Position numbers and translations under genes: made by a program
In this document: one piece after another, positions 1,696-54,264 of the stretch
Layout: every line of letters starts with the position of its first letter
How positions within the stretch are numbered: position 1 is the first letter of the stretch
NCBI GenBank assembly: GCA_964448115.1
Contig: CAYUVA010000006.1
Location: 43,608-107,607 of the forward strand
Direction: 5' to 3'
Origin: an uncultured bacterium
GTDB lineage: Bacteria > CAYUVA01
Length of the DNA stretch: 64,000 nucleotides
Notes under the pieces: model-generated
Seen by the model: the letters and a program-made list of their open reading frames with translations, nothing else
Told to the model about the DNA's origin: nothing
The model's database searches: none

Positions 1696-3120
1696 TCAGA
1701 CTATCGCTAATGTCGGCATCAGGTTGAGGATGAGAGAAGGGAACAGACCAAGCGCGAAGATGCCTGCCATGCTAAGCACTATTACTAAACCAAGTGCAAC
1801 CGGCAGCTTGATAAACGCAGCGCTCTGGCTATCTGCCATGAAGCTGCGCATGATCACCTTGAGGTAAAAGTAGGCTGCCACTACCGTGATAAGCAATCCG
1901 CCTAATGCCAGGGAATAAAGATGCCGGTCAACCAGAGCCTTGAATATAAGCAGCTTGCCGGTGAAGCCGACCGTGGGCGGTATCCCAGCCATGGCGAATA
2001 TACCCAATCCAAGCGCATAAGCCACGAACGGACTCCCCTTTGCCAAGCCAGCGAGATCGTCGAGTGAGGGCGGCCGCCCCAGGTAATGTGCAATGGCAAC
2101 ATAGGCGCCGAATACCAGGAAAACCATGAGGCTGTAACCGACCAGGTAAAACACCGCCGCTTGCGTAACATCGGGACCAACCGCAACCAGTGCCAGAACA
2201 ATATAGCCAGCCTGCCCGATGCTCGAATAGGCGAGCAGCCGCTTCAGATCCCTCTGTGCTATGGCAACGAAATTGCCGATAAGCAGGGTGAGAATAGCCA
2301 TAAAAGCGATGAGCCAGGGGAAATAACCGTGTATCAGCAGAATAAAAACAGCAAAGCCGGCAGCCTTGGATGCGCTCATTAGGAATGCAGTAACCGGATG
2401 GGGTGCTCCCTGATAGACATCGGGGATCCAGAAGTGAAACGGCGCCGCACCCATCTTGAAGCCGACACCGACCATTGCTAACGCCATGCCGATAAACAGT
2501 AAAACTGTGCCATAATGACCAGCATCAATCGGGTAGTTAAAGAATGTAAAATCAGCCAGCAGCGTAGATCCGCTTCCACTCCCCCAGATAAAGGCGATGC
2601 CGAATATTAAGAATGCGCTGGCAAAGGCGCTGACTAAAAAGAACTTGAGCAGCCCCTCGCGCCCCATCGGCTCGCTTTTGCCATGGTATCCGATCAATAG
2701 AAACATGGAGATCGATAAAAGCTCAAAGGCGATGATAAGAGTTATCAGGTCCGCGCTGCGCACCAGGATAAGCGCCCCAAAGGAAGCAGAGAACAACAAG
2801 GCATAGTAGCTCCCTTGAAGATCAGGATAAATGCTCGGCGCTGATATGAGCACGGTAAATAAAAGCGACAGGTATATAATCAAAGAAAATACGAACCCTA
2901 CATCGCTTCCCACCATCGCATTTCCGAAAATGTACTCCTGCGTCCAGTGCATGCAAGGACAGGCAGCCAGCAGAAACAGCGGTACCAGGGCTAGCACGAT
3001 GCTTGTTCCCCAAAACGATCTCGCCCGCAAGCTAGTGAGATCCAATATCAGCATAACTACGGCAGCGACCAGAACCGCCGTCTCAGGTACGAATAACGAG
3101 AAGTCTCCGAGTATATTCAT
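1696..3120 (-). CDS. nuoN: NADH-quinone oxidoreductase subunit N
   Basis: Polytopic antiporter-like subunit. The motif FHFWIPDVYQGAPHPVTAFLMSASK (PDVYQGAP is NuoN/ND2-specific) and LLAYSSIGQAGY are both present. It is the last gene of the nuo operon. Confidence 0.8.
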   Translation of the reverse strand: MNILGDFSLFVPETAVLVAAVVMLILDLTSLRARSFWGTSIVLALVPLFLLAACPCMHWTQEYIFGNAMVGSDVGFVFSLIIYLSLLFTVLISAPSIYPDLQGSYYALLFSASFGALILVRSADLITLIIAFELLSISMFLLIGYHGKSEPMGREGLLKFFLVSAFASAFLIFGIAFIWGSGSGSTLLADFTFFNYPIDAGHYGTVLLFIGMALAMVGVGFKMGAAPFHFWIPDVYQGAPHPVTAFLMSASKAAGFAVFILLIHGYFPWLIAFMAILTLLIGNFVAIAQRDLKRLLAYSSIGQAGYIVLALVAVGPDVTQAAVFYLVGYSLMVFLVFGAYVAIAHYLGRPPSLDDLAGLAKGSPFVAYALGLGIFAMAGIPPTVGFTGKLLIFKALVDRHLYSLALGGLLITVVAAYFYLKVIMRSFMADSQSAAFIKLPVALGLVIVLSMAGIFALGLFPSLILNLMPTLAIV

Positions 3121-3121
3121 A

Positions 3122-5146
3122 TCACACTAGAATGCTCAGGATTATCATTAGAGCTGATGCAGCGAAGAAATACAGTGCATAGTCCGGGAACCTGCCCGTC
3201 TGCAGGTACTTACCAGCCTGGGCAATACGTTTGACAATGGAGCCGAGCAGGTTCACCGCTCCGTCTATCACATAGATATCGAACACGAATGCCATGATGC
3301 GGGCAAGTCCCTTGGTGCCATCGACAAAGATCCGGTAGTAGCTCTTATCGATGTACCAGCCATTATCGAAGCTCTTGAGCACTATATTCTTGAATGCTCG
3401 CTGTTCCATAGCCAATGCGCCCTCACCGCCCTTACGGATGATGATAAGGTATAAGAAAAATAGCCCGATGAATGGCACCGCTATGGAGATCAGCAGAACC
3501 ACGGTATGATTATGCAAAAGGGCGATCACAGGACAGTAGCCTTGCTCGCAGGTATCAGCCGTCTCTTCCCCTTGGTGATGCTCGACCGCCGCATGTTCCG
3601 CAGGATGGACTGCCAGCTCCCTGGCAAAGGGGTATGTGGAGTGCAAGTAATGCTCGATGTGCGGCTTGCCGTGAAGCTCAGCGGGGACATTTACATACCC
3701 GCCGATCACCGACAACACTGCCAGCGCGACCAACGGATAAAGCATCACCTTTGGCGACTCGTGGGGATGGATCTCGTGTCCATAGCGCGGCTTGTCGCAG
3801 AAGGTCAAATAGACCGCGCGGAAGGTGTAAAAGGCGGTCAAGCCAGCGGTTACCAGGCTGATCGCCCAGAACCAGTAATAGACATCGTATCCGCTCTGCG
3901 CCTTGTGCAGGGTGCTTGCCAGTATCTCGTCCTTGGAGAAGAAGCCGCTCAATAGCGGAAGCCCAGAGAGGGCGGCAGCCCCGATGATAAAGGTAAAAAA
4001 GGTGCCCGGCATCTGCTTCTTCAGACCACCCATGCGCCTCATATCCTGCTCCTCGTGCATGCCGTGGATGACCGAACCGCTGCCCAAGAATAGGAGAGCC
4101 TTGAAGAATGCGTGGGTCATCAGATGAAAGAAGGCAGCAGCGAAAGCGCCTACACCGCAGGCTACAAACATATAACCGAGTTGGCTGATGGTCGAGTAGG
4201 CGAGCACCTGCTTGATGTCATACCTGGTCAGCGCAATGGTGGCAGCGACAAGGGCGGTCGCAACCCCGATGAAGGCGATGATGGTGAGAATATACGGCGC
4301 CATGACAAAGAGAACCTGGCAGCGCATCACCATATAGACACCAGCGGTTACCATGGTAGCAGCATGGATCAGGGCGCTGACCGGAGTGGGACCCTCCATC
4401 GCATCCGGAAGCCAGACAAATAATGGGATCTGCGCAGACTTGGCGGTTGCACCCCAGAAAAGTAGCGCGGCGATGCCGAAAAGGGTCATCGGAGCAACCG
4501 TGGATAGAACCTCAACTTTCAGCACATCATCGAAGTTCCAACTGCCAAAGAGCGTGAATATCCACGCCATGCCGAGTAAGAATCCGAAGTCTCCCACCCG
4601 GTTGGTCAGAAATGCCTTGACCGCTGCATCCGAGGCGCTCTTCTTCCTGTACCAGAAGCCGATCAGCAGATAAGACGACAGCCCGACACCCTCCCAGCCG
4701 ATGAACATGGTGAAGAAGTTGCCACTTAGCACCAAGGTTAGCATCATGAAGATAAACAGGTTCATATACGCGAAGAATCTATAGTAAGACTCCTCGTGAG
4801 CCATGTACCCGATGGAATAGACATGGATGATGAAGCCGACCCCGGTAACAACCAGCAGCATAAGCAAAGATAAAGGATCGAAGATCAGATTGAGCTTGAC
4901 ATCGAAATCCCCCAGCCGCATCAGGGTGTAAATATCTAGCACCTGGTGGCGATACTCGGCTGGGAGCATTGTATTGCCGATAAATAGAAGCACACCGAGC
5001 AAAAACGAGATAAGCACGCTTCCACAGGCGATGATATGCACCGTGCGCCTGCTAAATACCGTCCTGCCCAGCAAGCCGTTGAGCACAAACCCAGCCAGGG
5101 GCATAAGTATGGTCATAAACAGCATTGTCCTGGTCGATTCTACCAT
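3122..5146 (-). CDS. nuoL: NADH-quinone oxidoreductase subunit L (674 aa; start possibly at internal Met near 5125)
   Basis: The NuoL signature WLPDAMEGPTPVSALIHAATMV is present, as is the C-terminal long-helix region (IDGAVNLLG). It contains an unusual His-rich insert. Confidence 0.85.
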   Translation of the reverse strand: MVESTRTMLFMTILMPLAGFVLNGLLGRTVFSRRTVHIIACGSVLISFLLGVLLFIGNTMLPAEYRHQVLDIYTLMRLGDFDVKLNLIFDPLSLLMLLVVTGVGFIIHVYSIGYMAHEESYYRFFAYMNLFIFMMLTLVLSGNFFTMFIGWEGVGLSSYLLIGFWYRKKSASDAAVKAFLTNRVGDFGFLLGMAWIFTLFGSWNFDDVLKVEVLSTVAPMTLFGIAALLFWGATAKSAQIPLFVWLPDAMEGPTPVSALIHAATMVTAGVYMVMRCQVLFVMAPYILTIIAFIGVATALVAATIALTRYDIKQVLAYSTISQLGYMFVACGVGAFAAAFFHLMTHAFFKALLFLGSGSVIHGMHEEQDMRRMGGLKKQMPGTFFTFIIGAAALSGLPLLSGFFSKDEILASTLHKAQSGYDVYYWFWAISLVTAGLTAFYTFRAVYLTFCDKPRYGHEIHPHESPKVMLYPLVALAVLSVIGGYVNVPAELHGKPHIEHYLHSTYPFARELAVHPAEHAAVEHHQGEETADTCEQGYCPVIALLHNHTVVLLISIAVPFIGLFFLYLIIIRKGGEGALAMEQRAFKNIVLKSFDNGWYIDKSYYRIFVDGTKGLARIMAFVFDIYVIDGAVNLLGSIVKRIAQAGKYLQTGRFPDYALYFFAASALMIILSILV

Positions 5147-5442
5147 TTGAGCATATCCATCTCGTTAATATCGCTGTAGTCCTTGTCCCGGTAGATGAAG
5201 ATGATGATAGCCAGCCCGATGGCAGCCTCGGCGGCAGCCAGCGCAAGCACGAAGATGATCATCACCTCGCCGCGCACATTGTTCATGTACTTGGCAAATG
5301 CCATCAGCACAAGGTTCGCCGAGTTGAGCATAAGCTCGATGCCCATGAAAATTGCCAACGGATTTCTTCGCGCCAGGCAGACTATAGCTCCGATGATAAA
5401 CAGGATTACAGCCAGAATAATATAATGACCGACATGTATCAT
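5140..5442 (-). CDS. nuoK: NADH-quinone oxidoreductase subunit K
   Basis: A 100-aa, 3-TM protein carrying the conserved ...GIELMLNSANL...AEAAIGLAI... ND4L motifs. Confidence 0.85.
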   Translation of the reverse strand: MIHVGHYIILAVILFIIGAIVCLARRNPLAIFMGIELMLNSANLVLMAFAKYMNNVRGEVMIIFVLALAAAEAAIGLAIIIFIYRDKDYSDINEMDMLKW

Positions 5443-5987
5443 CTAATGGCTCTCCCTTCATCCCTTGGTTGGCTCTGCCGGGCAAAGTAGATCAAGCCTA
5501 TCAGCGCTGCCAGCAATAAGACCGAGATAAGCTCGAAGGCAAAGTAATACTCGGTAAGCAGGACATGGCTGACCTGGTAAGCGGTGCTTTGAACCGGATC
5601 GAAGACCTCCGCCTGGCTAGGCTGGTAATGGCTCGGCTGCATCCCCCTCAACATGCCGAAAATTACGAAAAATGGCGTGCAGAACGCAACCGAGATTAAG
5701 ATCATAAGAGCAATCTTGCCAGATCGTTTCCTTGCCGCATACGGGGAGGGCTTGAAATCTAAAAGCATAATCACGATGACGAACAGGACCATGATGGCGC
5801 CGGCATAGACGATCACCTGGAGTATAGCCAGGAACTCCGCTCCCATAAGTAAAAACAGCCCGGCAATGGCAAGGATAGTTACCACCAGGAACAGGGCATT
5901 ATTGACTAGGTTGCGATGTAGCAATAGCCCCAGCGCCCCGCCGATCGCTATCGCTGCCAAGATGTAAAAAATTGCTATGCTCGCCAT
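5439..5987 (-). CDS. nuoJ: NADH-quinone oxidoreductase subunit J
   Basis: A 182-aa membrane protein with ND6-like topology, placed between nuoH and nuoK. Confidence 0.7.
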   Translation of the reverse strand: MASIAIFYILAAIAIGGALGLLLHRNLVNNALFLVVTILAIAGLFLLMGAEFLAILQVIVYAGAIMVLFVIVIMLLDFKPSPYAARKRSGKIALMILISVAFCTPFFVIFGMLRGMQPSHYQPSQAEVFDPVQSTAYQVSHVLLTEYYFAFELISVLLLAALIGLIYFARQSQPRDEGRAIR

Positions 5988-5991
5988 GTCT

Positions 5992-7008
5992 TTATTTCAA
6001 GTATATGATGTAAAAGCCTGTCCAAAGGATGTTCAAAAGCGCCAGGGGGAACAAGAAGTACCACCCAAAGCGCACCAACTGGTCGAAGCGAAGCCTGGGG
6101 AGTGTCCCCCGCACCCAGATAAAGAAGAATATGAAGAAAGCCATCTTGCCTAAAAGCCAGAAGATGCCTGGAATATAGGTGAATGGCGCAAAGGGTATCA
6201 GCGGCTTGTAGCCGCCTAAAAAAAGCGTGGAGGCGATCAGCGATACAACCACTAGATGCACATACTCACCTAGGAAAAACAGGGCAAACTTCATCCCGCT
6301 GTACTCGACATTGTACCCGCTGACCAGCTCAGCCTCTGCCTCGGGAAGATCGAACGGGGTGCGGTTCATCTCCGCCATAGCGGCGATGAGATAAGCCAGA
6401 AATCCGAGCGGTTGCACCAGGATAAACGGGTACCTGCCCTGTGCCTCGACGATGCTGGTCAGGTTAAGGCTGCCGGTGATCATCACGATCCCGATCACGG
6501 AGAGCCCCAATCCAAGCTCGTAGCTTATCATCTGCGAGGTCGCCCGGACTCCGCCGATAAGCGACCACTTGTTCCTAGACGCCCAGCCACCCAGCGCAGT
6601 GCCATAAACTGCAAGCGATGATAGAGCGAACAGCACCAGGAGCCCGACCTCCATATCGGCTATGGTCAACGAGACCGGCTCAAAGAAAAGTCCGAACAGC
6701 GTGGTTTCAGGGATGATCGGGATCACCGATACCATCAGCATGGCTGGGATGACAAGAAAAGCTGGCGCCAAATAATAAAGCATCTTGCGCACATCAGCGG
6801 GGATAAGGTTCTCCTTGAACTGAAGCTTGATGAAGTCAGCAAAGGGCTGGAACAGTCCCCATGGACCAATGCGGTTGGGTCCTGGTCTCAGTTGTATCCA
6901 GCCGAGTATCTTGCGCTCGAACAGCACCGCATAAGGCATGACTATCATCAGTCCGCCGAAGACGAGCAGAACCTTGATCAGGGCTATGAGCCACGGCGAG
7001 GAGATCAT
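5992..7008 (-). CDS. nuoH: NADH-quinone oxidoreductase subunit H
   Basis: A 338-aa protein with ND1 motifs (...RGPWGLFQPFADFIKL..., EAEAELVSGYNVEYSG). Confidence 0.85.
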   Translation of the reverse strand: MISSPWLIALIKVLLVFGGLMIVMPYAVLFERKILGWIQLRPGPNRIGPWGLFQPFADFIKLQFKENLIPADVRKMLYYLAPAFLVIPAMLMVSVIPIIPETTLFGLFFEPVSLTIADMEVGLLVLFALSSLAVYGTALGGWASRNKWSLIGGVRATSQMISYELGLGLSVIGIVMITGSLNLTSIVEAQGRYPFILVQPLGFLAYLIAAMAEMNRTPFDLPEAEAELVSGYNVEYSGMKFALFFLGEYVHLVVVSLIASTLFLGGYKPLIPFAPFTYIPGIFWLLGKMAFFIFFFIWVRGTLPRLRFDQLVRFGWYFLFPLALLNILWTGFYIIYLK

Positions 7009-7266
7009 GCCGAACCCCCTATTGATGATGTCTCAAACCCCCTAAAACCTGTCATCCCGAGCGCAGTCCCAACTCCGCTGGAAATTGAGACGAAGTCGAG
7101 GGATCTCAGCAAGGCAATGATTACAAAGAGATTCCTCCACTCGCTTGTCCCGAAAAATTGGAACAAGCTCAATCGGAATGACATATTTCGGATTTGCCTT
7201 GACCTTTTTGGACAGACTGCCCTTGTTTGGCGCATCCGCTCGGTTGACACTCTCTTTATATTTCCT

Positions 7267-7290
7267 CTTATCATTCTATCACTTCATATC
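7267..7290. repeat. Repeat copy CTTATCATTCTATCACTTCATATC with preceding GCTCGGTT in the 286-bp nuoA-nuoH spacer; homologous to 54143-54187
   Basis: 26 of 29 nt match between 7259-7290 and 54160-54187. The upstream GCTCGG(A)TT motif is shared. Confidence 0.5.
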
Positions 7291-7294
7291 ATGT

Positions 7295-7657
7295 CTAAAA
7301 GTGAAAAACATTCTTCTTGACAGCATAAAGATATCCCAACAACACGAAGAATAGAAAAACGCCCATCTCGATAAGCCCGAACAAGCCAAGATCCTTGAAG
7401 ATCACCGCCCAGGGGTAGAAGAATACTACCTCGATATCGAATATAAGGAAAATCAAGGCGACCACGAAGAACTTGACGCTGTAGCGCACATAAGTCTTTG
7501 TTGGCGGGATACCGCACTCGTAGGTCTCCTGCTTGATCGGGTTGGGGGAGACGCCGCCAAGTATGCGCTGGAAGAAGACCACCGCCACGACGAATAGAAG
7601 TGCGAACAGAAACAGTATGAAAAAGGCGAGATACTCCATTACTTCTGCTTCCCCCAC
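7295..7657 (-). CDS. nuoA: NADH-quinone oxidoreductase subunit A (alternative start at 7639 overlapping nuoI stop)
   Basis: ND3 motifs YECGIPP...FDIEVVFFYPWAV are present. The position is unusual: it lies after nuoI rather than at the operon head. Confidence 0.8.
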   Translation of the reverse strand: MGEAEVMEYLAFFILFLFALLFVVAVVFFQRILGGVSPNPIKQETYECGIPPTKTYVRYSVKFFVVALIFLIFDIEVVFFYPWAVIFKDLGLFGLIEMGVFLFFVLLGYLYAVKKNVFHF

Positions 7658-8109
7658 TTCTTTATTATATCGTGATGTACTCCGCCGCGGGCAAGAAGCG
7701 CCTCCTTGTTATAAATCAAGGACTGGCGGCTCGGTCCCTGGAACGCCCATTCTTTCTTGCAGAAGATAGCCTGCTCAGGGCAGACCTCCTCGCAGAACCC
7801 GCAGAAGATGCACTTGTTCATATCGATGGTGAACTCGGCAGGGTACTTTTCAACCTTGTTATCTTCGGGCAGCTCCCCAGCTTTTATTGAGATAGCCTGC
7901 GGGGGGCAGATGAACTCGCAGAGGCAGCAAGCCACGCACTTAGCTCTTCCATCCTGGTCGGTTACTAGCACTGGCGCGCCGCGATAGTTGTCCTGAACCT
8001 GCCAGACAACGAACGGGTGCGGGATAGTAGAGTGGGGGCGCAGCATGTTGCGCAGCGTGATCGAGAGACCGCGCACGAACTCGAAGGCTATGCTGAATGG
8101 ATTGCTCAT
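7639..8109 (-). CDS. nuoI: NADH-quinone oxidoreductase subunit I (2x[4Fe-4S] ferredoxin)
   Basis: Two motifs are present, CxxCxxCxxxCP (CVACCLCEFICP) and CIFCGFCEEVCP. Confidence 0.85.
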   Translation of the reverse strand: MSNPFSIAFEFVRGLSITLRNMLRPHSTIPHPFVVWQVQDNYRGAPVLVTDQDGRAKCVACCLCEFICPPQAISIKAGELPEDNKVEKYPAEFTIDMNKCIFCGFCEEVCPEQAIFCKKEWAFQGPSRQSLIYNKEALLARGGVHHDIIKKWGKQK

Positions 8110-9581
8110 GCGGTTACGCCCTTTGCTATCATGGCTAGCAGGTTTATTATCTCGCTCTCTGTTTTCACGCTCTCCGGCTTCTCTGCGCCGGGGGTGAAGT
8201 GCTGCGTGATGCCCTGGAAATTAGTCCAGTCCCCCTCTTTCTCTGTATAGACCGCTGATGGGAGTATGATGCCGAAGTAAGAGTTGGTGCTATGCGAGCT
8301 GGTGCCGACGAATATCGACTGTTGAAGCACCTTTGCCACATTTCCCGAGGCAGCCTCGCCTAGCCAGTTATCGCGGAAGGAGAGCACGAAATCAACGCCT
8401 TGCTTTTCGATCAGGTCAAGGATCTCGCCATCGGTCTCAAATAGCTTATATCCGAGCTGCTTCAAGCCGTATGCGTTGGGTCCCTTGTCAGCCCTGATCA
8501 GCAGCTCATCATCCTGCCCGGCGACGAGGCTCTTGAAGCCAAAGATCGCCTGGGGGAAGATATCCTTGAAGGTCTCCATTAGCAAGCTCGCCTCCTGGTT
8601 GCTCAGCCACTCGCTGGCAAGGATGAGCTGTTTTGCCTTGCGCTCCCTGCCGGCTTGCAAAAGCATCTCCCTGCACTGTGGCACGGCTTGCTCCCAACCG
8701 ACGCTCTCGAAGGCGCTCTTCAGCTTGCGCCAGGGGGTGAGGATGCGCTTAGGTGAATAGGCTTCCTTGTAGGACTCCCGTCCCTTGTCGCACATCCAGT
8801 AACCGTTGACCATCTCGTTGTATCTAGGAAGGATGCGCCGAACCACGAACCTTCTCGACTGCAGCCATATATTGCACCCCCGCGAGCACATGGGGCAGAT
8901 AGACTCGAAGGAGCGCAGAAACCAAACCCGATCCTTGAAGCGGAAATCCTTGGAGGTAAGCGCGCCGACCGGGCAAAGATCCACCGTGTTCAGCGAGTAG
9001 GGATCATCGAACGGCTGACCCGGCGCGGTTGCTACCGAGTTGCGATCCCCCCTTGCGATAAAGGTGAGCTGTTCGCTTTTGGATACCTCAGTGCAGAAGC
9101 GGATGCAGCGCGAGCACTTGATGCAGCGCTCGCCATCGTAAACGATGCGCGGACCTATGGGATATCGCTTGCGATCTTTCTCCTTGGGGAACTCGAAGCG
9201 GCTCCTTCCCCTGCCGCAGTCGTAGGCATAGTCCTGCAGCAGGCACTCGCCAGCCTGGTCGCAGATCGGGCAATCGAGCGGGTGATTTATCAGTTGGAAC
9301 TCCATAGCCGCTGCCCTTGCTACAAGCACCGGCTGCGTATTCGTATATACCTTCATCCCCTGGGTAGGGGAGAGCTTGCATGCGATGGTAGGATTCGGAT
9401 TATCTCCAACTTGTACCATGCACAGCCGGCAGTTGCCGGCAACCGACAGCGCTGGATGATAGCAAAGATGAGGTATGTATATATCATTAGCCAGGGCGAC
9501 CTCGAGGACATTGCTTCCCTTGTTAGCCACAATCTCGCGGTCGTTTAAGAAGAATGTAATCCTGTCGCTATCCTTGCTCAT
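8106..9581 (-). CDS. nuoG: NADH-quinone oxidoreductase subunit G, short form (491 aa)
   Basis: The N-terminal 2Fe-2S ferredoxin (CYHPALSVAGNCRLCMV) and 4Fe-4S clusters (HPLDCPICDQAGEC, CIKCSRCIRFC) are present. The C-terminal molybdopterin-like domain is reduced. Confidence 0.8.
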   Translation of the reverse strand: MSKDSDRITFFLNDREIVANKGSNVLEVALANDIYIPHLCYHPALSVAGNCRLCMVQVGDNPNPTIACKLSPTQGMKVYTNTQPVLVARAAAMEFQLINHPLDCPICDQAGECLLQDYAYDCGRGRSRFEFPKEKDRKRYPIGPRIVYDGERCIKCSRCIRFCTEVSKSEQLTFIARGDRNSVATAPGQPFDDPYSLNTVDLCPVGALTSKDFRFKDRVWFLRSFESICPMCSRGCNIWLQSRRFVVRRILPRYNEMVNGYWMCDKGRESYKEAYSPKRILTPWRKLKSAFESVGWEQAVPQCREMLLQAGRERKAKQLILASEWLSNQEASLLMETFKDIFPQAIFGFKSLVAGQDDELLIRADKGPNAYGLKQLGYKLFETDGEILDLIEKQGVDFVLSFRDNWLGEAASGNVAKVLQQSIFVGTSSHSTNSYFGIILPSAVYTEKEGDWTNFQGITQHFTPGAEKPESVKTESEIINLLAMIAKGVTA

Positions 9582-10849
9582 TCAGCCACTTGCGCCTTTG
9601 AACCCGATTTGATGTATCTCATGAATTCGTCCCTGAACTTGGTAACGAAGCTCTTGACCGGCATAGCGGCGGCTGCTCCCAGCGCGCATATAGTCCTGCC
9701 GTTTATGTTATCCGAGATCTCGCATAGCAGATCCAGGTCCGACTCCTTGCCGTTGCCCTTGAGTATGCGGTCGATGATCTTGAGCATCCATCGGCAGCCC
9801 TCGCGGCAGGGGACGCACTGACCGCAGGTCTCGTGGGTATAAAAGCGAGTGATGTTCCATAGCGCCCTGACCATATCGACCGTCTCGTCCATCACGATAA
9901 CCGCTGCGGATCCCAAGAATGTGCCCTTTGCCTGCAGGGCATCGAAGTCCATTGCCACATCGATCTCGCTCGCCTTGAGCAGCGGCACCGATGACCCGCC
10001 GGGGATGACCGCCTTGAGCTTATTGTCGTTGCGGATGCCCCCGCAGTGCTCGTAGATCAGCTCCTTGAGGTTGATGCCCATGGGGAACTCATAGACCCCC
10101 TGTTTCTTGACATGACCGCTGACGCAGTAGAGCTTGGGTCCGTAATTCTTCTCCCTGCCGTAGCTCTTGAACCAATCGACCCCCTTGTTCATTATCATAC
10201 CTGCGAGGGTAAGCGTCTCCACATTGTTGACCGTAGTGGGCAGGTTCCAGGCGCCGGCGGTGGCGGGGAAGGGTGGCTTGGGTCTCGGATAGCCGCGTCG
10301 CCCCTCAAGCGAGCTGATCAAGCCCATCTCCTCGCCGCAGATATAAGCGCCCGAGCCCCTGTCTATGACCAGGTCGCAACTGAACTTGGATCCAAGAATA
10401 TTCTTTCCGAGATAACCAGCGGCATAAGCCTCCTCGATCGCTTTATTCATTGATGCGAAGCTGTCTGGGTACTCGCCCCTGATATAAATGTACGCAGTAT
10501 CAGCACGGTTGGCGTAAGCAGCGGTCAGGATGCCCTCGATGAGTAAATGAGGGGCATTCTCCATTATGACCCGGTCCTTGAAGGTCCCCGGTTCGGATTC
10601 ATCAGCGTTGCAAATAAGGATATGCCGGCGATCATCCTTGGGCACGAAAGACCACTTGACGCCAGCGGGGAAGCCAGCGCCGCCGCAGCCACGCAGTTGG
10701 CTATCCTTGATGGTTGCGATAACATCATCGGGGCTAAGCTCATGAAGGGTCTTCTTAAGCGCCTCGTAGCCGCCCATGGCAAGATAGTCCTTCAGGCTCT
10801 TGGCTCTGGCATCCTTGGTATAGGCGGTTATCTCCTCGATCTGCTTCAT
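9578..10849 (-). CDS. nuoF: NADH-quinone oxidoreductase subunit F (NADH/FMN-binding, 51-kDa)
   Basis: The motifs GCGGAGFPAG, the SGAYICGEE FMN site, and CGQCVPCREG (4Fe-4S) are all present. Confidence 0.85.
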   Translation of the reverse strand: MKQIEEITAYTKDARAKSLKDYLAMGGYEALKKTLHELSPDDVIATIKDSQLRGCGGAGFPAGVKWSFVPKDDRRHILICNADESEPGTFKDRVIMENAPHLLIEGILTAAYANRADTAYIYIRGEYPDSFASMNKAIEEAYAAGYLGKNILGSKFSCDLVIDRGSGAYICGEEMGLISSLEGRRGYPRPKPPFPATAGAWNLPTTVNNVETLTLAGMIMNKGVDWFKSYGREKNYGPKLYCVSGHVKKQGVYEFPMGINLKELIYEHCGGIRNDNKLKAVIPGGSSVPLLKASEIDVAMDFDALQAKGTFLGSAAVIVMDETVDMVRALWNITRFYTHETCGQCVPCREGCRWMLKIIDRILKGNGKESDLDLLCEISDNINGRTICALGAAAAMPVKSFVTKFRDEFMRYIKSGSKAQVAE

Positions 10850-11332
10850 TTAATCCCTTGCTTTGAGTTCCCTTATTATTTCGATCATCTTCTCTGGCGT
10901 TACCCGGTAGTATGTCTCGAAGTTGACCATTACAACCGGACCCCTGTCGCATCCGCCGAGGCACTCGACCTGCGCTAGCGAGAAGCGCTTATCCTTGGTG
11001 GTTTGCCCCACCTTGATGCCCAGTTCCTTTTGCGCCGCCTCGATGACCTCAAGGCATCCGTTCAGCTCGCAGGAGATGGTGCCGCAGCACTGTATATGGA
11101 ACTTGCCATGATGAGGGAGCTTGTAGAACGAGTAAAAATCGAGCGCTCCATAGACCCGAGCCGGAGCGATCTTGAGGATCTCTGCAAGTTCGGGGATGAC
11201 ATCGTTGGAGACAAAACCGAGGTGATCCTGCACCAGGTAGAATGCCTCCATCAGCCCCCCGCCCGGCTCGTGGAAGCGGGCAGCCACGCTTTGTATCTTC
11301 TCCCTGAGCTGGTTGTCGATCAGATTAGCCAT
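10850..11332 (-). CDS. nuoE: NADH-quinone oxidoreductase subunit E (24-kDa, 2Fe-2S)
   Basis: Thioredoxin-like [2Fe-2S] ligands are present (CCGTISCELNG...CLGGCDRGP). Confidence 0.8.
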   Translation of the reverse strand: MANLIDNQLREKIQSVAARFHEPGGGLMEAFYLVQDHLGFVSNDVIPELAEILKIAPARVYGALDFYSFYKLPHHGKFHIQCCGTISCELNGCLEVIEAAQKELGIKVGQTTKDKRFSLAQVECLGGCDRGPVVMVNFETYYRVTPEKMIEIIRELKARD

Positions 11333-12540
11333 TATTTATCCGCCTCCCCCATTACTGGATCCAGGCTGGCAAAGATGGCGACCGCATCGGCGATCAACTG
11401 CCCCTTGAGCATCTCGCCAGCCAACTGGATATTTACGAAGCTGGGAGAGTGAATCTTCAGCCTCCACGGGGACTTGCCCCCCGCCTTGTGTATGATGGTG
11501 AAGCCGAGTTCTCCCTTGGAGGACTCCACGCCCTGATAAATCTCCCCCTCGGGGAGATCCGGTCCCTCGGTTACGATCTTGAAGTGGTTGATAAGCTCCT
11601 CCATCTTGGTGAGCACATCGACCTTGGGGGGTAGCACGACCTTGGGGAGATCTGCGTTTATAGGACCGCTGGGCATGTTCTCCACGCACTGTCTTACTAT
11701 CTTGGCGCTCTCGTCTATCTCCTGCAACCTGACCAGGTATCTTGCGTAGGTATCCCCCTTTTCCTGTAACGCCATATCGAAGTCGAACTCCTCGTACCCG
11801 CTGTAAGGTCTCGCCTTGCGCACATCGTAAGGTATCCCGCTAGCGCGGGCATTGGGACCGGTTACGCCATAAGCCAGTGCAGTCTCCTTGGACAGGATGC
11901 CGACATCGACCGTGCGCTTCAGCCAGATCTCGTTCTTGCTCAGCAGACCGCGCAGCTCCTTCATCCTCCCCGGCAGGTGATCGAGCAACGCCTTTATCTC
12001 ATCGAGGTTATCCTGTGTAACATCGTTGCGCAGCCCGCCAACCCTGGTGTAGCTGGTGGTAAACCTCGCTCCGCAGATATGCTCGAAGATGTTATATATC
12101 TTCTCCCTGGTATCGAAGCAGTAGAAATAGACGGTCATTGCGCCTATATCGAGCGCGGTAGTAGCTAGCCACAGCAAGTGCGAGGAGATCCTGGCAAGCT
12201 CGCTGACCATTACTCGTATATACTTGCAGCGCGGTGGAACCTCGATACCGCCCAGCTTCTCCACAGCCAGCATGTAGCCGACATTATTGAGCATCGGGTT
12301 CAGGTAATCGAGGCGGTCCGTATGGCAGAGAAACTGCATAAAGGTCAGTCGCTCCGCGGTCTTCTCCTTGCCCCGATGCAGATAGCCAATGATCGGCTTG
12401 ACATCGGTTATATACTCGCCATCAAGGGTGATAAGCAGGCGGCAGACTCCATGGGTGGCAGGATGCTGGGGACCCATGTTCAGAACGATCTGGTTCTTGT
12501 CCTTGTCTGCTATTAACTGTTCAAGCTCTTGTCTCATCAA
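11332..12540 (-). CDS. nuoD: NADH-quinone oxidoreductase subunit D (49-kDa)
   Basis: A 402-aa protein with the NiFe-hydrogenase-large-subunit-like fold motifs (MGPQHPATHGV..., ...RIHSPSFVNI). Confidence 0.85.
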   Translation of the reverse strand: MMRQELEQLIADKDKNQIVLNMGPQHPATHGVCRLLITLDGEYITDVKPIIGYLHRGKEKTAERLTFMQFLCHTDRLDYLNPMLNNVGYMLAVEKLGGIEVPPRCKYIRVMVSELARISSHLLWLATTALDIGAMTVYFYCFDTREKIYNIFEHICGARFTTSYTRVGGLRNDVTQDNLDEIKALLDHLPGRMKELRGLLSKNEIWLKRTVDVGILSKETALAYGVTGPNARASGIPYDVRKARPYSGYEEFDFDMALQEKGDTYARYLVRLQEIDESAKIVRQCVENMPSGPINADLPKVVLPPKVDVLTKMEELINHFKIVTEGPDLPEGEIYQGVESSKGELGFTIIHKAGGKSPWRLKIHSPSFVNIQLAGEMLKGQLIADAVAIFASLDPVMGEADK

Positions 12541-13172
12541 TCACCCTTTGGCTTGTATTTTCTGACCTTAGCCATGGTCCCTTTTCTTATCTTTTGCTTC
12601 TTGCACTCGCCTGTCGTGATCCTAGCCTCGCACTCCTCGAAGGGGTAGAACTCGCACTCCTCGCGCTTGAGGTGGTGCACCTGCTCTGGACCGGCGTGTC
12701 CGGTGAAGGGAAAGTCTTTGCGCAGAGGATGCCCCTCGAAGTCCTCCCACATATATATTCGGCGCAGGTCCGGATGCCCCTCAAAGTGAATGCCCATCAT
12801 GTCGTAGGCTTCGCGCTCCAGCCAGTTGGCGCCCGCATATACCGACACCAGGCTAGGAACCATTGGCTTAGATTTTTCGATATCATCGGTGTCTGGTATG
12901 AGTGCCTTGACCAGGATGCGGTAGTTGTTTTTGATTGAAAGGAAAATGTAAATCAAGGCAAACCTCGGCTGCTTCCACCCGCTGTAGTCAACCGAGACGA
13001 TATCGAGCAGCATCTCGAAGTCGAATGGCGCGACATTGAGCCTCTCGGCAACCTTTACAATGTCGGCTGCATCGATGATGAGCATTATGTCGCCTCGATG
13101 CTCCGAGATCTCCTTTATAAGCTCTGGATTATCAGCCTGGAATCTTGATAGGATGCTCTTCAGGTCTGCCAT
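12537..13172 (-). CDS. nuoC: NADH-quinone oxidoreductase subunit C (30-kDa) with Cys/Lys-rich C-terminal tail
   Basis: The motif [21 protein letters not shown] is present. The tail is [24 protein letters not shown].... Confidence 0.8.
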
Positions 13173-13680
13173 TTTTTATCCACTCGCGAAGTTTCAGCAG
13201 TGCGTCGATTACACTCTCCGGCCTAGGGGGACATCCGCCGACATAAACATCGACAGGGAGGAAGTGATCGATACCAGGTACCACAGAGTAATTGCTGCGG
13301 TACAAGCCACCGGAACAGACGCAGGCTCCCATGGCGATCACCCACTTGGGAGTAGCCATCTGGTCGTAGATCCTGCGCACCACCGGCGCCATCTTGTAGG
13401 TTACCGTGCCTGCCACGATCATGCAGTCAGCCTGCCGGGGCGAAAAGCGCATGACCTCCATTCCGAAGCGGGAAATATCGTACCTCGGCGCCACCAGACC
13501 CATCATCTCTATGGCGCAACAGGAGATCCCCATCGGCATGGGCCAGAGGCTCCCTCGCTGCCCCCACTTGATTAGATACTTATCAATGGTCTCGATGGTG
13601 GTTAGATAGATGTTGCGAAGTAACCCGGACCTCTTTTCCGCTTCCGCTTCAGTTACTGCTAGTTCTGGTTCTGCATTCAT
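13132..13680 (-). CDS. nuoB: NADH-quinone oxidoreductase subunit B (20-kDa, N2 cluster)
   Basis: The motifs CCAIEMM...GACVCSGG...GCPPRP are present. It is the first gene of the operon and overlaps nuoC by 41 nt. Confidence 0.85.
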
Positions 13681-13789: not shown

Positions 13790-13821
13790 CACGCAAAGAC
13801 GCTCACGCAAAGAACGCAAAG
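13790..13821. repeat. Reverse-complement copy of the CTTTGCGT octamer-repeat motif (plus strand reads CACGCAAAGACGCTCACGCAAAGAACGCAAAG)
   Basis: Three tandem CACGCAAAG units lie upstream of the nuo operon. Confidence 0.5.
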
Positions 13822-14009
13822 AAAGAAAGAGATACCGTGCTACCGTTTTTCTTTCATTTATCGATTCGAGCTTAGTAAGAAAAAATCCCACCGGATTCGG
13901 CCATTGCTATTGCAAAAAGGTGAGAATGGACCAAGTATGGATTAATATAATGTCAATCTAGTATTAGGTGTTATATGAATGCTTTCCAGCCTAACTGTAC
14001 CTTGAATAG

Positions 14010-39365: not shown

Positions 39366-40205
39366 ATGCGAGAGATCCATGTAGATGAGATAGCGAAGCT
39401 GGTTGCGCCACTGACCTACCAGGCGAACTACTACCTTGGTGAAGATGTACTCAATTCCCTTAAAGAGGGGCTGGAAAAGGAAATAAGCCCTGCTGGCAAG
39501 GATATCTTCAGGCAGCTTATCAAGAATGCAGAGATCGCCCGTGATGAGCAGATGCCGATCTGCCAGGACTGCGGTCTGGCGGTCTATTTTGTCGAGCTGG
39601 GCGTGGATGTGCATATAGTCGGCGGCACCCTGCGCGATGCATTGGAGCAGGCTACACGAGTCGGCTACAAGGAGGGCTACCTGCGCAAATCTACCTGCGA
39701 CCCATTCACCAGAAAAAACATAGGGGACAACACCCCCAGTATTATTCATCTCGAGCAGGTTCCCGGCGACAAGATAAAGATCATCTTTGCTCCCAAGGGT
39801 GGTGGCAGCGAGAATATGAGCCGGGTTACAATGTTGGCACCTTCACAGGGAATTGAGGGAGTAAAGAAATTCGTAGTCAATCGCGTGTCAGAAGCTGGCG
39901 CTAATCCATGTCCTCCGATAGTAGTCGGCATCGGTGTCGGGGGTACATTCGAGCGCTCGGCTTATCTTGCAAAAAAGGCGCTTATCCGTGAGTTCGGACA
40001 GAGAAATCCCGAAGAGCGTTTCGCAAACTTCGAGCGCGAGGTCTGGGAGGAGTGTAACAAGCTCGGCATCGGTCCACAGGGGCTGGGTGGCAGGTTCACC
40101 GTCCTGGAAGTATTCATGGAGGTGGAGCCTTGTCATATCGCAAGCCTACCCTGTGCGGTAAATATAAACTGCCATGCGACAAGACATAAGGAGATATTGA
40201 TATAG
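39366..40205 (+). CDS. Fumarate hydratase class I / Fe-S hydro-lyase, alpha subunit (TtdA/FumA N-terminal type)
   Basis: A 279-aa protein with the motifs ...DEQMPICQDCGLAVYFVELG... and ...KGGGSENMSR.... No beta subunit gene is adjacent. Confidence 0.75.
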   Translation: MREIHVDEIAKLVAPLTYQANYYLGEDVLNSLKEGLEKEISPAGKDIFRQLIKNAEIARDEQMPICQDCGLAVYFVELGVDVHIVGGTLRDALEQATRVGYKEGYLRKSTCDPFTRKNIGDNTPSIIHLEQVPGDKIKIIFAPKGGGSENMSRVTMLAPSQGIEGVKKFVVNRVSEAGANPCPPIVVGIGVGGTFERSAYLAKKALIREFGQRNPEERFANFEREVWEECNKLGIGPQGLGGRFTVLEVFMEVEPCHIASLPCAVNINCHATRHKEILI

Positions 40206-40268
40206 GCTTTAGGCTTTAGGCTTTAGGCTTTAGGCTTTAGGCTTTAGGCTTTAGGCTTTAGGCTTTAG
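40204..40268. repeat. Tandem heptamer array (AGGCTTT)x9, beginning at the fumA-alpha stop codon
   Basis: Nine perfect 7-nt units were read directly. Confidence 0.95.
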
Positions 40269-40630
40269 TTTTTGGAAGAGCGAAGTGAGGCAATTAGACC
40301 TTGGAGAACCCTGCAAGCTTCTTGTTGAAGAACCGATAATTTTCTATGCTGGTCGCGTTTCAGGTAGCCAAGATCTTTTGACAAATCAAGTAGATAGGCA
40401 ATCTCGAAAAGAGAACCAAGTGAAATTCCTAGGAAGTGTACATAATCGCGTTGTGAAAACCTGGCACTACCTTCGACTATATTTGTTGGAACTGAAACAG
40501 CAGCGCGCCTTAGCTGAGATGTCAAACCATACAACTCTTCCTTTGGAAAGTATTGTGTTTCCTTGTAGATCTCTTTCACCAAACAATCGGCAAGTTCGAA
40601 TGCTTTTAGCCTATGATAATCCCTGGGCAT
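40265..40630 (-). CDS. Four-helix-bundle protein (23S rRNA intervening-sequence protein family)
   Basis: A 121-aa protein. The motif ...RRAAVSVPTNIVEGSARFSQRD... matches the family signature. Confidence 0.75.
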   Translation of the reverse strand: MPRDYHRLKAFELADCLVKEIYKETQYFPKEELYGLTSQLRRAAVSVPTNIVEGSARFSQRDYVHFLGISLGSLFEIAYLLDLSKDLGYLKRDQHRKLSVLQQEACRVLQGLIASLRSSKN

Positions 40631-40689
40631 ACTTGAAAACTAACATAAATAAAGAAAAAAACAACAAAAAACTATTTTCCCAAAAGCAA

Positions 40690-40731
40690 AAAGCCAAGAG
40701 CCTAAAGCCTAAAGCCTAAAGCCTAAAGCCT
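40690..40731. repeat. Inverted copy of the heptamer array: (AAAGCCT)x4 perfect plus 2 degenerate units
   Basis: It is the reverse complement of the 40204-40268 array, so together they bracket the four-helix-bundle gene. Confidence 0.9.
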
Positions 40732-44957: not shown

Positions 44958-46358
44958 AAAGTTATCCCCTAATGAAGAAAAGATAAGCATCACCAGCAGC
45001 CCATACAAAGGCACAAAGATGCGCTCGAAGGACTGGATGATCACCACCTTAAGTGTTTCTGCGCCCGGTGCGCTCATGGATAATAACGATAATACTGCAA
45101 GATAAAGCAGGATCGGCGTTGTTAATAACCGGTTCTTATTGCTCCTTGTGAAATTCCTCGGAGCTAATAGAAACAGGATGGTCAATACAGTCCACAAATA
45201 TAGCCAGCAACCATCAAGGGCTATATCGTTTATAAAGCTGCTCCAGAAAATAAAGAGGTGATCAAGGTTGGATAGTATATGTAGCATTCCTGGTAACGAT
45301 AGCTCCAGGTAGTGAGCCTGCACTGCGCCCAGACCATGAACAAGGCAAAATACCTGCCAGGGTAGCACAATAAAGAAAAAAGAGAGGATGATAGGTAGCA
45401 GCCTAATAGCTTTCCTTGTTGGCGATCGCACCACCAGTACTGCGATGGCAAATCCGATGGATAATACAAGCCCCTCGTTCTTGATCATAGCTGATTGAGC
45501 ACAAAACAGCGAGGCTAGAACCAAAGCTGCTCTATCCTTTCTCTTTAGCCACCTGAGTAACCATCTCGCTGTCGCCGCCAGATATAGCCCCAGGCATAAA
45601 TCTACCTGCGCAACCACAGCTTGACTTAGAATAAGTGGGGAACTGCAGAAGATTAGGGAGATCACAAGGTTGACCCACTTTAATTCTGGATTCAATCCAC
45701 CCAGCCCCTGTGCGATGACCAGCACGAATAATAACCATAATAAAGTGGGAATTAGCTTGATCAGCCGCTCGTTGAACGAGCCGGCAAAATGGCAAACCCA
45801 AACCCCAAGCAGCGGGAAATGAAGCGGATAGTTTAAGGTAAGCGGATGCAACAATGGCATGGTAGCATTGGGATCAACCCTCGGATAAGGAGGATCCTGA
45901 TAGCGACCTGGATCTGTGAAATGCTCACCTAGCTCCCCCTGGTAATACAACAGCTTCGCCTTTAAGCCCCACACCGCGTACTCATCCAACTGTCGGAAGC
46001 CGAAATCGACTGAGGTGCTCGCCAAGGAAGCAACCAAAACCCCCATTATCCCTATTAGGGCAGTAGTGCGCTTCCATCTTATGGATAAGCATATAGAATA
46101 TAGATTTTCCCCTAGTCTCCAGAATCTAATTACGCAAACAAGAAAAGTGAAAAATAACATCAAACCCAACCAAAATGTAATGGTTAATCTGATGCCAACA
46201 AGTAACATGAGGTTTCCCGTAAAGCCGATCATTACAAGCCCCAGAAGCATTCCCCAAAGCATCACTTCGCCGAGCCTTTTGGCTTTTTGAGCGATGGACA
46301 AGTAGAGCAGGCAGCCCAGTAACAGCGGTATGAAAAGGCTGAGAACGACTGTCAGCAC
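44913..46358 (-). CDS. Polytopic membrane protein (possible GT-C glycosyltransferase or polymerase/ligase-like); last 14 codons encoded by the repeat element
   Basis: An ORF of about 12 TM. The C-terminal ...LLGSAPNPSHDC maps onto 44916-44957. Confidence 0.45.
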   Translation of the reverse strand: MLTVVLSLFIPLLLGCLLYLSIAQKAKRLGEVMLWGMLLGLVMIGFTGNLMLLVGIRLTITFWLGLMLFFTFLVCVIRFWRLGENLYSICLSIRWKRTTALIGIMGVLVASLASTSVDFGFRQLDEYAVWGLKAKLLYYQGELGEHFTDPGRYQDPPYPRVDPNATMPLLHPLTLNYPLHFPLLGVWVCHFAGSFNERLIKLIPTLLWLLFVLVIAQGLGGLNPELKWVNLVISLIFCSSPLILSQAVVAQVDLCLGLYLAATARWLLRWLKRKDRAALVLASLFCAQSAMIKNEGLVLSIGFAIAVLVVRSPTRKAIRLLPIILSFFFIVLPWQVFCLVHGLGAVQAHYLELSLPGMLHILSNLDHLFIFWSSFINDIALDGCWLYLWTVLTILFLLAPRNFTRSNKNRLLTTPILLYLAVLSLLSMSAPGAETLKVVIIQSFERIFVPLYGLLVMLIFSSLGDNFRRLLGSAPNPSHDC

Positions 46359-49308: not shown

Positions 49309-49333
49309 TCTTTGTGTCCTTGTGCCTTTGTGG
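49309..49333. repeat. Copy of octamer-repeat motif TCTTTGTGTCCTTGTGCCTTTGTGG
   Basis: Same motif family as 1621-1668. Confidence 0.5.
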
Positions 49334-53320: not shown

Positions 53321-53348
53321 TGTCCTTGATCGTAAGGCTTGAGGATCT

Positions 53349-53365
53349 CCCGACAAAGTCGGGAC
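53349..53365 (+). terminator. Hairpin TCCCGAC-AAA-GTCGGGA after the FadL-like gene
   Basis: A 7-bp stem. The downstream tract is only moderately T-rich. Confidence 0.35.
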
Positions 53366-53403
53366 CACTTCTTCTGGGCAAGGAAGGATTACCACTCCCT
53401 TAC

Positions 53404-53500
53404 GGTCGTGGCTCTGATTTTGCTATCTTTGTGCCTTTGTGATTTAATAATCATCGAATTTCGCACTCTTTCTTCTTTTCGCCTTTGCGTGTTTGCGTGA
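53404..53500. repeat. Composite repeat: GTCGTGGCTCTGATTTT + CTTTGTGCCTTTGTGA (53427-53442) + CTTTGCGTGTTTGCGTGA (53483-53500)
   Basis: It matches motifs at 1621-1668 (15 of 15 nt CTTTGCGTGTTTGCG) and the GGCTCGGAT family. Confidence 0.5.
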
Positions 53501-53823
53501 GATCTGCGGCTGGTGACGAAGATTTTTGGAGGCGGCACCCCCCAAGAGCCGAGTTATAAGCAATATCAATTATTATTAACTAATTAAAATCTTCAATTAT
53601 ATCAATGAGTTATCCCCCTTGTGTGCCATTTTGGCACGATATATTTGTGGTGAACTCTCCTGAGTGAGGATCCTCGGAAGAGGTTTTTAAAAAAATACTT
53701 CTTTAATATCAAGGAGATATCCTAAATAGATCAATTAGCAACCCTCTTTTTGGGCTTTTAAACTTGAGTCGATCCACGAAGATTTCGAGCAAAACCACCT
53801 AAAAAATCAAATAGTTAAGTCAT

Positions 53824-53841
53824 ATGTTCCACATGGAACAT
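53824..53841. promoter_or_regulatory. Perfect palindrome ATGTTCCA-CA-TGGAACAT in the long AT-rich intergenic region
   Basis: Read directly. Confidence 0.25.
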
Positions 53842-54142
53842 TAATTCATTTTTTGACAAAGCTCCTGTTTGCGCGATCTAGTTTTAAAAAATAGCAGTGG
53901 CACTCGGATCCTCAAATTTTAACCCTATAAATATTGGCTTAAAAGGGTGGTTTATATGCCCTATTTAGGCAATTATACTTATCAAATAGCCTGATATCGG
54001 GTATAATGTAGAATAATTGGATCTTTAGGAGGGTGGTTTTCGGATTCGCCTTTTTGAAGCTGCTATGAAAAGATTACCACTCGATTATCCCGACCATAAG
54101 GGAGTGGTCAAAGACAGACCGCTCATCGCGATTTAATCGGGA

Positions 54143-54187
54143 CTCACGGCTCGGATTTTTTCCCTTATCACTCTATCACTTCATTTC
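54143..54187. repeat. Repeat copy CTCACGGCTCGGATTTTTTCCCTTATCACTCTATCACTTCATTTC (homolog of 7233-7290; GGCTCGGAT core)
   Basis: Aligned by eye to the nuoA-nuoH spacer copy. Confidence 0.5.
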
Positions 54188-54264
54188 TTGACTACGATAG
54201 ACTATTTTACTATCAATGAGAGGGTTCAGCGGTAATTTATCCGCCTTTATATGGGTATTGAAGC

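Follow-up and report, generated by a model that had tools for sequence, protein, structure and literature searches.

A stretch of 64,000 nucleotides (hereafter the window) from an uncultured bacterium, CAYUVA01 (contig CAYUVA010000006.1, positions 43,608 to 107,607), carries 13 intact complex I genes on its minus strand, running from 13680 to 1696 in the order nuoB-C-D-E-F-G-I-A-H-J-K-L-N as assigned with Pfam and NCBIfam models. The reading best supported by the data, at a probability of roughly 0.65, is that these genes form the main cluster for a functional, NADH-oxidising complex I, reshuffled in its gene order, and that the enzyme is an ordinary three-pump complex whose nuoM is encoded at another locus. 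Under this proposal the host would be a deeply branching, barely sampled diderm bacterium in which evolutionary reshuffling put the seven peripheral-arm genes (nuoBCDEFGI) before the membrane-arm genes (nuoAHJKLN), and the enzyme would most probably operate with the three pumps NuoL, NuoM and NuoN. The cluster represents an unusual arrangement of a familiar machine, in a lineage without sampled relatives, and not a new kind of enzyme.

The family matches were near full-length for all 13 genes and codon usage was of the coding type. The Q-module was complete, comprising NuoB (13132-13680), NuoC (12537-13172), NuoD (11332-12540) and NuoI (7639-8109), with matches to PF01058, PF00329 and PF00346 and, for NuoI, to the models TIGR01971 (107.5 bits) and NF004538. 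The N-module was represented by NuoE (10850-11332; PF01257), NuoF (9578-10849; PF01512 with PF10589) and NuoG (8106-9581; iron-sulfur (Fe-S) domains), which together bear the expected flavin mononucleotide and Fe-S domains. The membrane subunits NuoA (7295-7657; PF00507), NuoH (5992-7008; PF00146), NuoJ (5439-5987; PF00499) and NuoK (5140-5442; PF00420) were all near full length, and the antiporter-like subunits were NuoL (3122-5146; 667-674 amino acids; TIGR01974, 690 bits) and NuoN (1696-3120; 474 amino acids). The probable start of nuoA is the ATG at 7639, giving a protein of 114 amino acids that matches positions 2-97 of the 99 in PF00507; this is also the length of the nuoA gene call in an independent Logan assembly. 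The functional residues E145, K229, H254, H334, H338, K342, K398 and D399 of NuoL fell in invariant alignment columns.

The junctions between the genes were tight, ranging from -41 to 0 nt within the peripheral-arm block nuoB-C-D-E-F-G-I (Q-module and N-module, 7639..13680) and from -4 to +14 nt within the membrane-arm block nuoH-J-K-L-N (1696..7008). The sole loose junction in this -41 to +14 nt series was that between nuoA and nuoH, of 286 nt. The stop codon of nuoI and the start codon of nuoA share 1 nt (TAATG), and nuoL and nuoN are separated by 1 nt with no nuoM in between. Base composition was uniform along the operon, and the codon score of nuoA was the highest of the operon. The TAATG overlap and the native codon usage of nuoA point to an old, settled arrangement. 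An independent Logan assembly of SRR15988951 (locus L081, a 9.8-kb contig) gave the same order, E-F-G-I-A-gap-H-J-K-L-N, indicating that the order is not an assembly artefact. The description given in an earlier, sequence-only reading of this DNA, of 13 contiguous minus-strand nuo genes with nuoA between nuoI and nuoH, was thus borne out by the family models and by the second assembly. That description omitted a second displacement: relative to the canonical order, nuoA is gone from the head of the operon and nuoI is gone from its position between nuoH and nuoJ. The cluster is better described as module-sorted: the seven genes of the peripheral arm (BCDEFGI) precede those of the membrane arm (AHJKLN).

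The last gene, 1696-3120, had been called nuoN in the sequence-only reading, which named its re-annotation as NuoM as a refuting outcome. The product scored 304 bits on TIGR01770 (NuoN) over residues 9-465, compared with 128 bits on TIGR01972 (NuoM), its named database matches were all NuoN, and the top solved structures were NuoN, ND2 and NdhB. Alignment to solved NuoN showed that the glutamate of transmembrane helix 5 (TM5) and the lysine motifs of TM7, TM8 and TM12 are kept. The NuoN assignment was therefore upheld, and because the NuoN model spans residues 9-465, an M/N chimera arising from a recombination that deleted nuoM was ruled out. The protein is very divergent, its closest homolog being 38% identical.

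NuoG had been described as short, and the length of 491 amino acids is correct; it is not exceptional, since 17 of the 102 NuoG open reading frames (ORFs) in related loci are 500 amino acids or shorter (minimum 313). The N-terminal Fe-S domains Fer2_4, NADH-G_4Fe-4S_3, Fer4_Nqo3 and Fer4_NDSU1 were complete in Pfam searches, PDB matches to 75-kDa subunits covered residues 5-340, and the Molybdopterin match was only partial. The short C-terminal domain explains why NuoG reached only 385 bits on TIGR01973, where the cut-off is 470 bits. This shortened molybdopterin-like domain is ordinary variation.

No third antiporter-like (Proton_antipo_M) gene was detected within the 64-kb window by tblastn with NuoL and NuoN, confirming in this stretch the earlier statement that NuoL and NuoN are its only antiporter-like subunits and that a NuoM-type gene is absent. 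The possibility that nuoM lies directly beyond the operon was also addressed: nuoN is followed, after a 305-nt gap, by an OmpA/TPR lipoprotein gene and then by a convergent gene that crosses the window edge, so the operon does not have nuoM as a direct neighbor.

The number of pumps was instead read from NuoL. The lateral helix (HL) of NuoL runs along the adjoining pumps and ends in TM16. The HL core of the window NuoL, measured between the WYxD and QTG motifs, was 52 amino acids long, compared with a median of 53 (interquartile range 52-53) in 119 homologs, and the TM16 tail was 25 amino acids, as in the homologs; the segment directly before the HL was 49 amino acids, compared with 46 (+3). 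The HL aligned without gaps to canonical NuoL of L-M-N operons and to residues 530-600 of Thermus Nqo12. The homolog neighbourhoods inspected for this ruler (L162-L166) all encode NuoM too. An AlphaFold2 model of NuoL (predicted template modelling score 0.83) placed a continuous 54-residue helix at 589-642 and a terminal TM helix at 649-666, and matched full-length solved NuoL/ND5 chains with TM-scores of 0.75-0.84.

An added pump leaves a trace in this helix. The four-pump (2M-type) complexes of Nitrospira and the five-pump complexes of 'Ca. Manganitrophaceae' are pump-number variants that can be read from HL length, the extra (fourth) pump being accompanied by a 26-amino-acid HL insertion (PMC9040806). 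The ruler responds within the clade of the window protein, because the HL of P0133, its nearest NuoL homolog (52-54% identity), carries a 24-amino-acid internal duplication and measures 77 instead of 52-53 amino acids. Unlike the 2M-type proteins, the window NuoL has an HL with neither an insertion nor a deletion, lacking any indel of about 26 amino acids of the pump-number-variant type, and its extra residues lie after TM15 (about 20) and before the HL (3). It therefore reads as the NuoL of a three-pump enzyme. Where the sequence-only reading had left the choice between a nuoM encoded elsewhere and a reduced complex with two antiporter-like modules, the three-pump length of the HL favors the first and speaks against the second. 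The three-pump NuoL, added to the fact that nuo genes are often scattered in related lineages, makes a nuoM elsewhere in the genome the best reading.

Two other features of these NuoL proteins were observed. The HL duplication of P0133, which is encoded on an NCBI contig of 95,473 nt, is the signature reported for four-pump (2M-type) complexes. In the window protein, the loop after TM15 is about 20 amino acids longer than in homologs (86 versus 64), accounts for most of the extra length of NuoL, and is rich in histidine (HPAEHAAVEHHQGEETADTCEQGYCP, residues ~480-545, window 3400-3700, between TM15 and the next TM helix). The predicted local distance difference test (pLDDT) values of the model were below 50 in this loop, which could be metal-binding or lineage-specific.

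The window proteins are remote from those in the databases. All ten that were looked up were singletons at 90% identity, and the top identity per subunit was 36% for NuoE, 38% for NuoN, 55% for NuoH, 58% for NuoF and 61% for NuoI; NuoH-seeded scans of genome and metagenome contigs and homolog searches with NuoN, NuoL and NuoI gave no subunit a relative above 61% identity. Gene order was compared in about 160 related loci fetched by NuoH similarity, with orders read from an ORF-based table. The order H-I-J was present in 100 of these loci and nuoA preceded nuoB or nuoC in 79, and I-A-H was found in none. The comparison of synteny with relatives proposed in the sequence-only reading thus had a divided outcome: the full order B-C-D-E-F-G-I-A-H-J-K-L-N was shared by no fetched locus, the nearest subunits being at most 61% identical, and pieces of it recur. 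None of the examined loci lacked nuoM alone.

In locus L046, nuoA-H-J-K-L stands right after a divergent, unrelated aminotransferase gene, with an A-H junction of 21 nt. Runs that begin with nuoB, with no nuoA detectable before it, were found in L059 (Verrucomicrobiales), L146 (a microbial-mat metagenome contig) and L171 (Limisphaerales); in L171 the gene preceding nuoB is on the opposite strand. The order H-J-K-L-M-N without nuoI occurs in L166. The nuo operons of a member of the Calditrichota (L002, 2766-15295) and of the Armatimonadota (L076, 7937-17396) run A-C-D-...-H-J-K-L-M-N without nuoB and nuoI. The closest homologs of NuoI (55-61%), from Acidobacteriota, are encoded alone, as nuoI-nuoB or as nuoB-nuoI-nuoB amid unrelated genes. 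According to a 2025 survey, complex I occurs in both 'split' and single-cluster form within most clades (PMC12361115). These recurring partial orders and the survey indicate that a plastic gene order is the norm in this region of the tree, and the window cluster is one more nuo permutation, an unusually tidy one. The H-J and I-H orders scored for L109 and L144 were discarded as products of spurious long ORFs on high-GC contigs; L144 was checked by tblastn and L109 was judged alike.

Several side observations were made on these loci. The operons of L002 and L076 that lack nuoB and nuoI complement the detached nuoI-nuoB pairs found elsewhere. The detached NuoI genes of Acidobacteriota (including Polarisedimenticolia) lie at 9434-12220 of L168/L169, 2224-3233 of L170 and 992-1492 of L167; the nuoB-nuoI-nuoB form is followed by a Methyltransf_28 gene (NDUFAF7-like assembly factor), and the other forms are a nuoI-nuoB pair or a lone nuoI. 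In L162 (10001-16726) the cluster begins at nuoJ, directly after an aminoacyl-tRNA synthetase gene, and continues with nuoK, an L-M fusion, a CitMHS transporter gene, a hypothetical gene of 121 amino acids and nuoN. The fusion product, P0132, is a NuoL-NuoM protein of 1155 amino acids that is 49% identical to the window NuoL.

The spacer between nuoA and nuoH (7009..7294, minus strand) had been described as a non-coding gap of 286 bp, and both its extent and its non-coding nature held. A mechanical ORF of 89 amino acids (7005-7274) had a codon log-odds of -0.095, under every 90-codon window of the real genes of the window, and the spacer had no family match in Pfam, NCBIfam or Rfam. A new small subunit encoded by this ORF was ruled out on these two grounds.

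Folding analyses revealed a structured element of about 140 nt within the spacer (7047..7188, minus strand), either a three-way-junction RNA or a palindromic element. An 11-bp outer stem (GUCAUUCCGAU / CUCGGGAUGAC) encloses three hairpins. The sense (mRNA) strand was predicted to fold with -62.8 kcal/mol (z = -6.0; 0 of 200 shuffles as good), compared with -45.4 kcal/mol (z = -3.6) for the antisense strand. The element occurs in a single copy in the 64 kb. A search of 1.84 billion representative proteins with the spacer ORF returned a single relative, P0370 (E = 6e-9, 51% identity over 72 amino acids), and the match maps to 7017-7217 of the window. In its simplest reading P0370 looks like a related palindromic DNA element of another organism that was accidentally translated. 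Because the A-H junction of L046 is only 21 nt, we infer that most of the spacer is a palindromic element (~140-200 nt) inserted into a formerly tight junction; it is not the scar of a nuoA move. The idea that the GTCATTCCGA...GGAATC arms of the spacer belong to a widespread repeat gained no support. The pattern (gap of at most 30 nt) was present in 0 of 172 fetched loci, a weak test in that the gap of the window element is 37 nt and L081 was missed too.

If transcribed, the element would probably act as an intercistronic RNA structure, a suggestion based on its predicted fold, and such a structure could decouple the mRNA stability or the translation of the nuoA-side and nuoH-side halves of the operon. 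A weak internal promoter may combine with it. Scans for intrinsic terminators and sigma-70 promoters in the spacer and at both ends of the operon yielded nothing above chance, and searches of Rfam with the spacer and with the 53.3-54.3 kb region gave chance-level matches only.

The 5′ end of the spacer contains a motif of 40 nt (7258..7297) that is identical at 33 of 40 positions to 54155-54194. The 21-nt core of the motif fits a degenerate pattern exactly, the copies differing at one base, with 0 chance matches expected. The match to a site near 54160 noted in the sequence-only reading is therefore real; its description as a dispersed repeat was not sustained, as the window holds just two copies. 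The second copy is 47 kb away, about 70 nt upstream of a DnaJ-domain gene. No similar sequence was found upstream of nuoB or at the nuoI/nuoA junction. The sole sigma-70-like match in the spacer (TAGACA-16-AATGAT, minus strand) falls inside the motif, which may be a shared regulatory site.

A number of points weigh against the proposed three-pump enzyme with a structured intercistronic spacer. That nuoM lies elsewhere is something we infer, no nuoM of this organism having been found in the 64 kb read of a 115,870-nt contig, and HL length is indirect evidence, as the helix would still be full-length had nuoM been lost recently. Confidence in the HL of the NuoL model was moderate only (pLDDT about 58-72). 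No relative shares the gene order, so its age is undatable. The spacer element is single-copy and its P0370 relative is known as a protein only, and the promoter-like site is no better than chance (1 found, 1.0 expected).

Four other explanations were weighed against the three-pump enzyme with a distant nuoM. An unlikely one, though the least so, is that a peripheral-arm operon and a membrane-arm nuoAHJKL(M)N operon were secondarily juxtaposed and are expressed partly independently from a promoter in the spacer. In its favor, L046 has a stand-alone A-H-J-K-L cluster, and the nearest neighbors of the peripheral and membrane subunits differ, with NuoB and NuoD nearest to L059 and L146 (Verrucomicrobiales and a mat metagenome contig), NuoI nearest to Acidobacteriota and Verrucomicrobiota, and NuoH, NuoK and NuoL nearest to the L001 group. 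The only sigma-70-like site of the spacer, moreover, lies in the shared 40-nt motif. However, the loose junction is A|H and not I|A: translational coupling ties nuoA to nuoI, which puts it in the 'wrong' block for a simple operon fusion. The identity differences are modest and come from a nearest-neighbor comparison, and the promoter match is at chance level.

Quite improbable is a reduced complex I with two antiporter-like pumps only, in which NuoL would dock on NuoN and fewer protons would be moved per NADH. Such a form, itself held to be improbable to the same degree, would keep a full-length HL whose end is anchored further along the membrane arm, and requires a genome without nuoM. The lack of a third antiporter-like gene in 64 kb agrees with it, as do the 1-nt separation of nuoL and nuoN, as if the pair were the selected unit, and the divergence of NuoN (38% to its closest homolog), which could reflect an altered interface. 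Against this, the HL and TM16 have exactly the length found in three-pump enzymes, whereas a two-pump arm would be expected to make do with about 25 fewer, given the +24 to +26 amino acids per added pump. NuoN is N-type along its full length and no M/N hybrid, and scattered nuo genes are common among relatives. A two-pump enzyme would thus presuppose that nuoM was lost very recently or that TM16 docks in a way without precedent. We know of no described complex I with L and N alone, and none was found in the literature searched. If true, the two-pump form would mirror the 2M-type as a naturally occurring 'minus-one-pump' complex I whose H+/e- ratio is lower, and, alone among the readings considered, it would inform the old question of the number of antiporter modules that coupling needs.

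The relocation suggested in the sequence-only reading, taken as a recent repeat-mediated event that carried nuoA from the operon head to between nuoI and nuoH, with a repeat copy staying behind in the spacer, is very unlikely. The recurrence of the 40-nt motif at 54155-54194 beyond chance is the observation in its favor. With two copies only, the second upstream of an unrelated DnaJ-domain gene, and with none flanking nuoA, upstream of nuoB or at the nuoI/nuoA junction, the motif does not support such a move. The 1-nt overlap of nuoI and nuoA and the fully native codon usage of nuoA, the top score of the operon, are against it as well; nuoI is displaced too, which a single transposition of nuoA leaves unexplained, and the A-H adjacency is independently present in L046. 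An assembly or binning artefact, in which a chimeric contig produced both the odd order and the missing nuoM, is extremely unlikely: the source is a metagenome-assembled contig whose ten looked-up proteins are database singletons, but L081 carries E-F-G-I-A-gap-H-J-K-L-N on one 9.8-kb contig, composition is even over the operon, and chimeras do not produce overlapping or 1-nt junctions.

The canonical 14-gene nuoA-N operon, as in E. coli, Thermus thermophilus (Nqo1-15) and Paracoccus, shares 13 of its 14 core subunits with the window. The N-module (EFG) is present in both, the HL and TM16 have the same length, and NuoL, NuoN and NuoG match solved subunits. In place of the canonical A-B-C-D-E-F-G-H-I-J-K-L-M-N, the window has B-C-D-E-F-G-I-A-H-J-K-L-N, no nuoM in the cluster or in 64 kb, and a structured 286-nt spacer inside the operon. 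The canonical order is typical of the Nuo14 family and does not define it. The ndh genes of cyanobacteria form split or partly scattered clusters. As in split nuo/ndh clusters, a core gene probably lies away from the main cluster and nuoI is not between nuoH and nuoJ. The window resembles L046 in having nuoA directly upstream of nuoH, and L059, L146 and L171 in starting with nuoB. Unlike split clusters, it keeps all genes but nuoM in one co-oriented cluster sorted by enzyme arm.

The spacer element also has counterparts. Stem-loops, or palindromes of the repetitive extragenic palindromic (REP) kind, between cistrons give segmental mRNA stability, as in malEFG and in Rhodobacter puf. The window element resembles them in being a very stable, sense-biased fold in a non-coding gap between cistrons, known here from sequence alone. 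It differs in being single-copy in 64 kb, in forming a three-way junction instead of a simple hairpin, and in having no Rfam match. Of the traits of REP elements and miniature inverted-repeat transposable elements, terminal inverted repeats and a stable fold were present, and multiple copies were not seen in the 64 kb.

If the three-pump enzyme with a distant nuoM is correct, the cluster adds one more natural permutation of nuo genes, sorted into peripheral-arm and membrane-arm blocks, and may be of some use for relating operon order to the modular assembly of complex I. Split clusters being common, calling a subunit missing from a single contig is unsafe. The HL-length ruler is a simple, transferable predictor of pump number from NuoL alone.

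Other features of the window were noted. The motif CTTTGYGYSTTTGYG occurs in 9 copies (0.03 expected), nearly all intergenic, at 1621-1673, 13800-13835, 45004-45018, 49310-49332 and 53427-53497; the copy at 45004 is inside an ORF. The motif brackets the nuo operon, with copies immediately 3′ of nuoN and a similar run ahead of nuoB. The region 53321-54264 is an AT-rich intergenic stretch of 945 nt between a FadL-type outer-membrane gene and the DnaJ-domain gene, with no credible ORF and no Rfam match; it holds CTTTGYG motifs and the 40-nt motif common to the nuo spacer. Finally, a gene of 121 amino acids (40265-40630, minus strand), situated between a fumarate hydratase gene and a PMT_2 glycosyltransferase gene, encodes a 23S rRNA-intervening-sequence protein (PF05635, E = 1e-32). 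Two arrays flank the gene, one a perfect (TAGGCTT)x9.4 (40203-40268) and the other an inverted (AAAGCCT)x6 (40690-40731), and the whole of 40203-40731 looks like an intervening-sequence-like cassette that could form a long stem and lies outside any rRNA.

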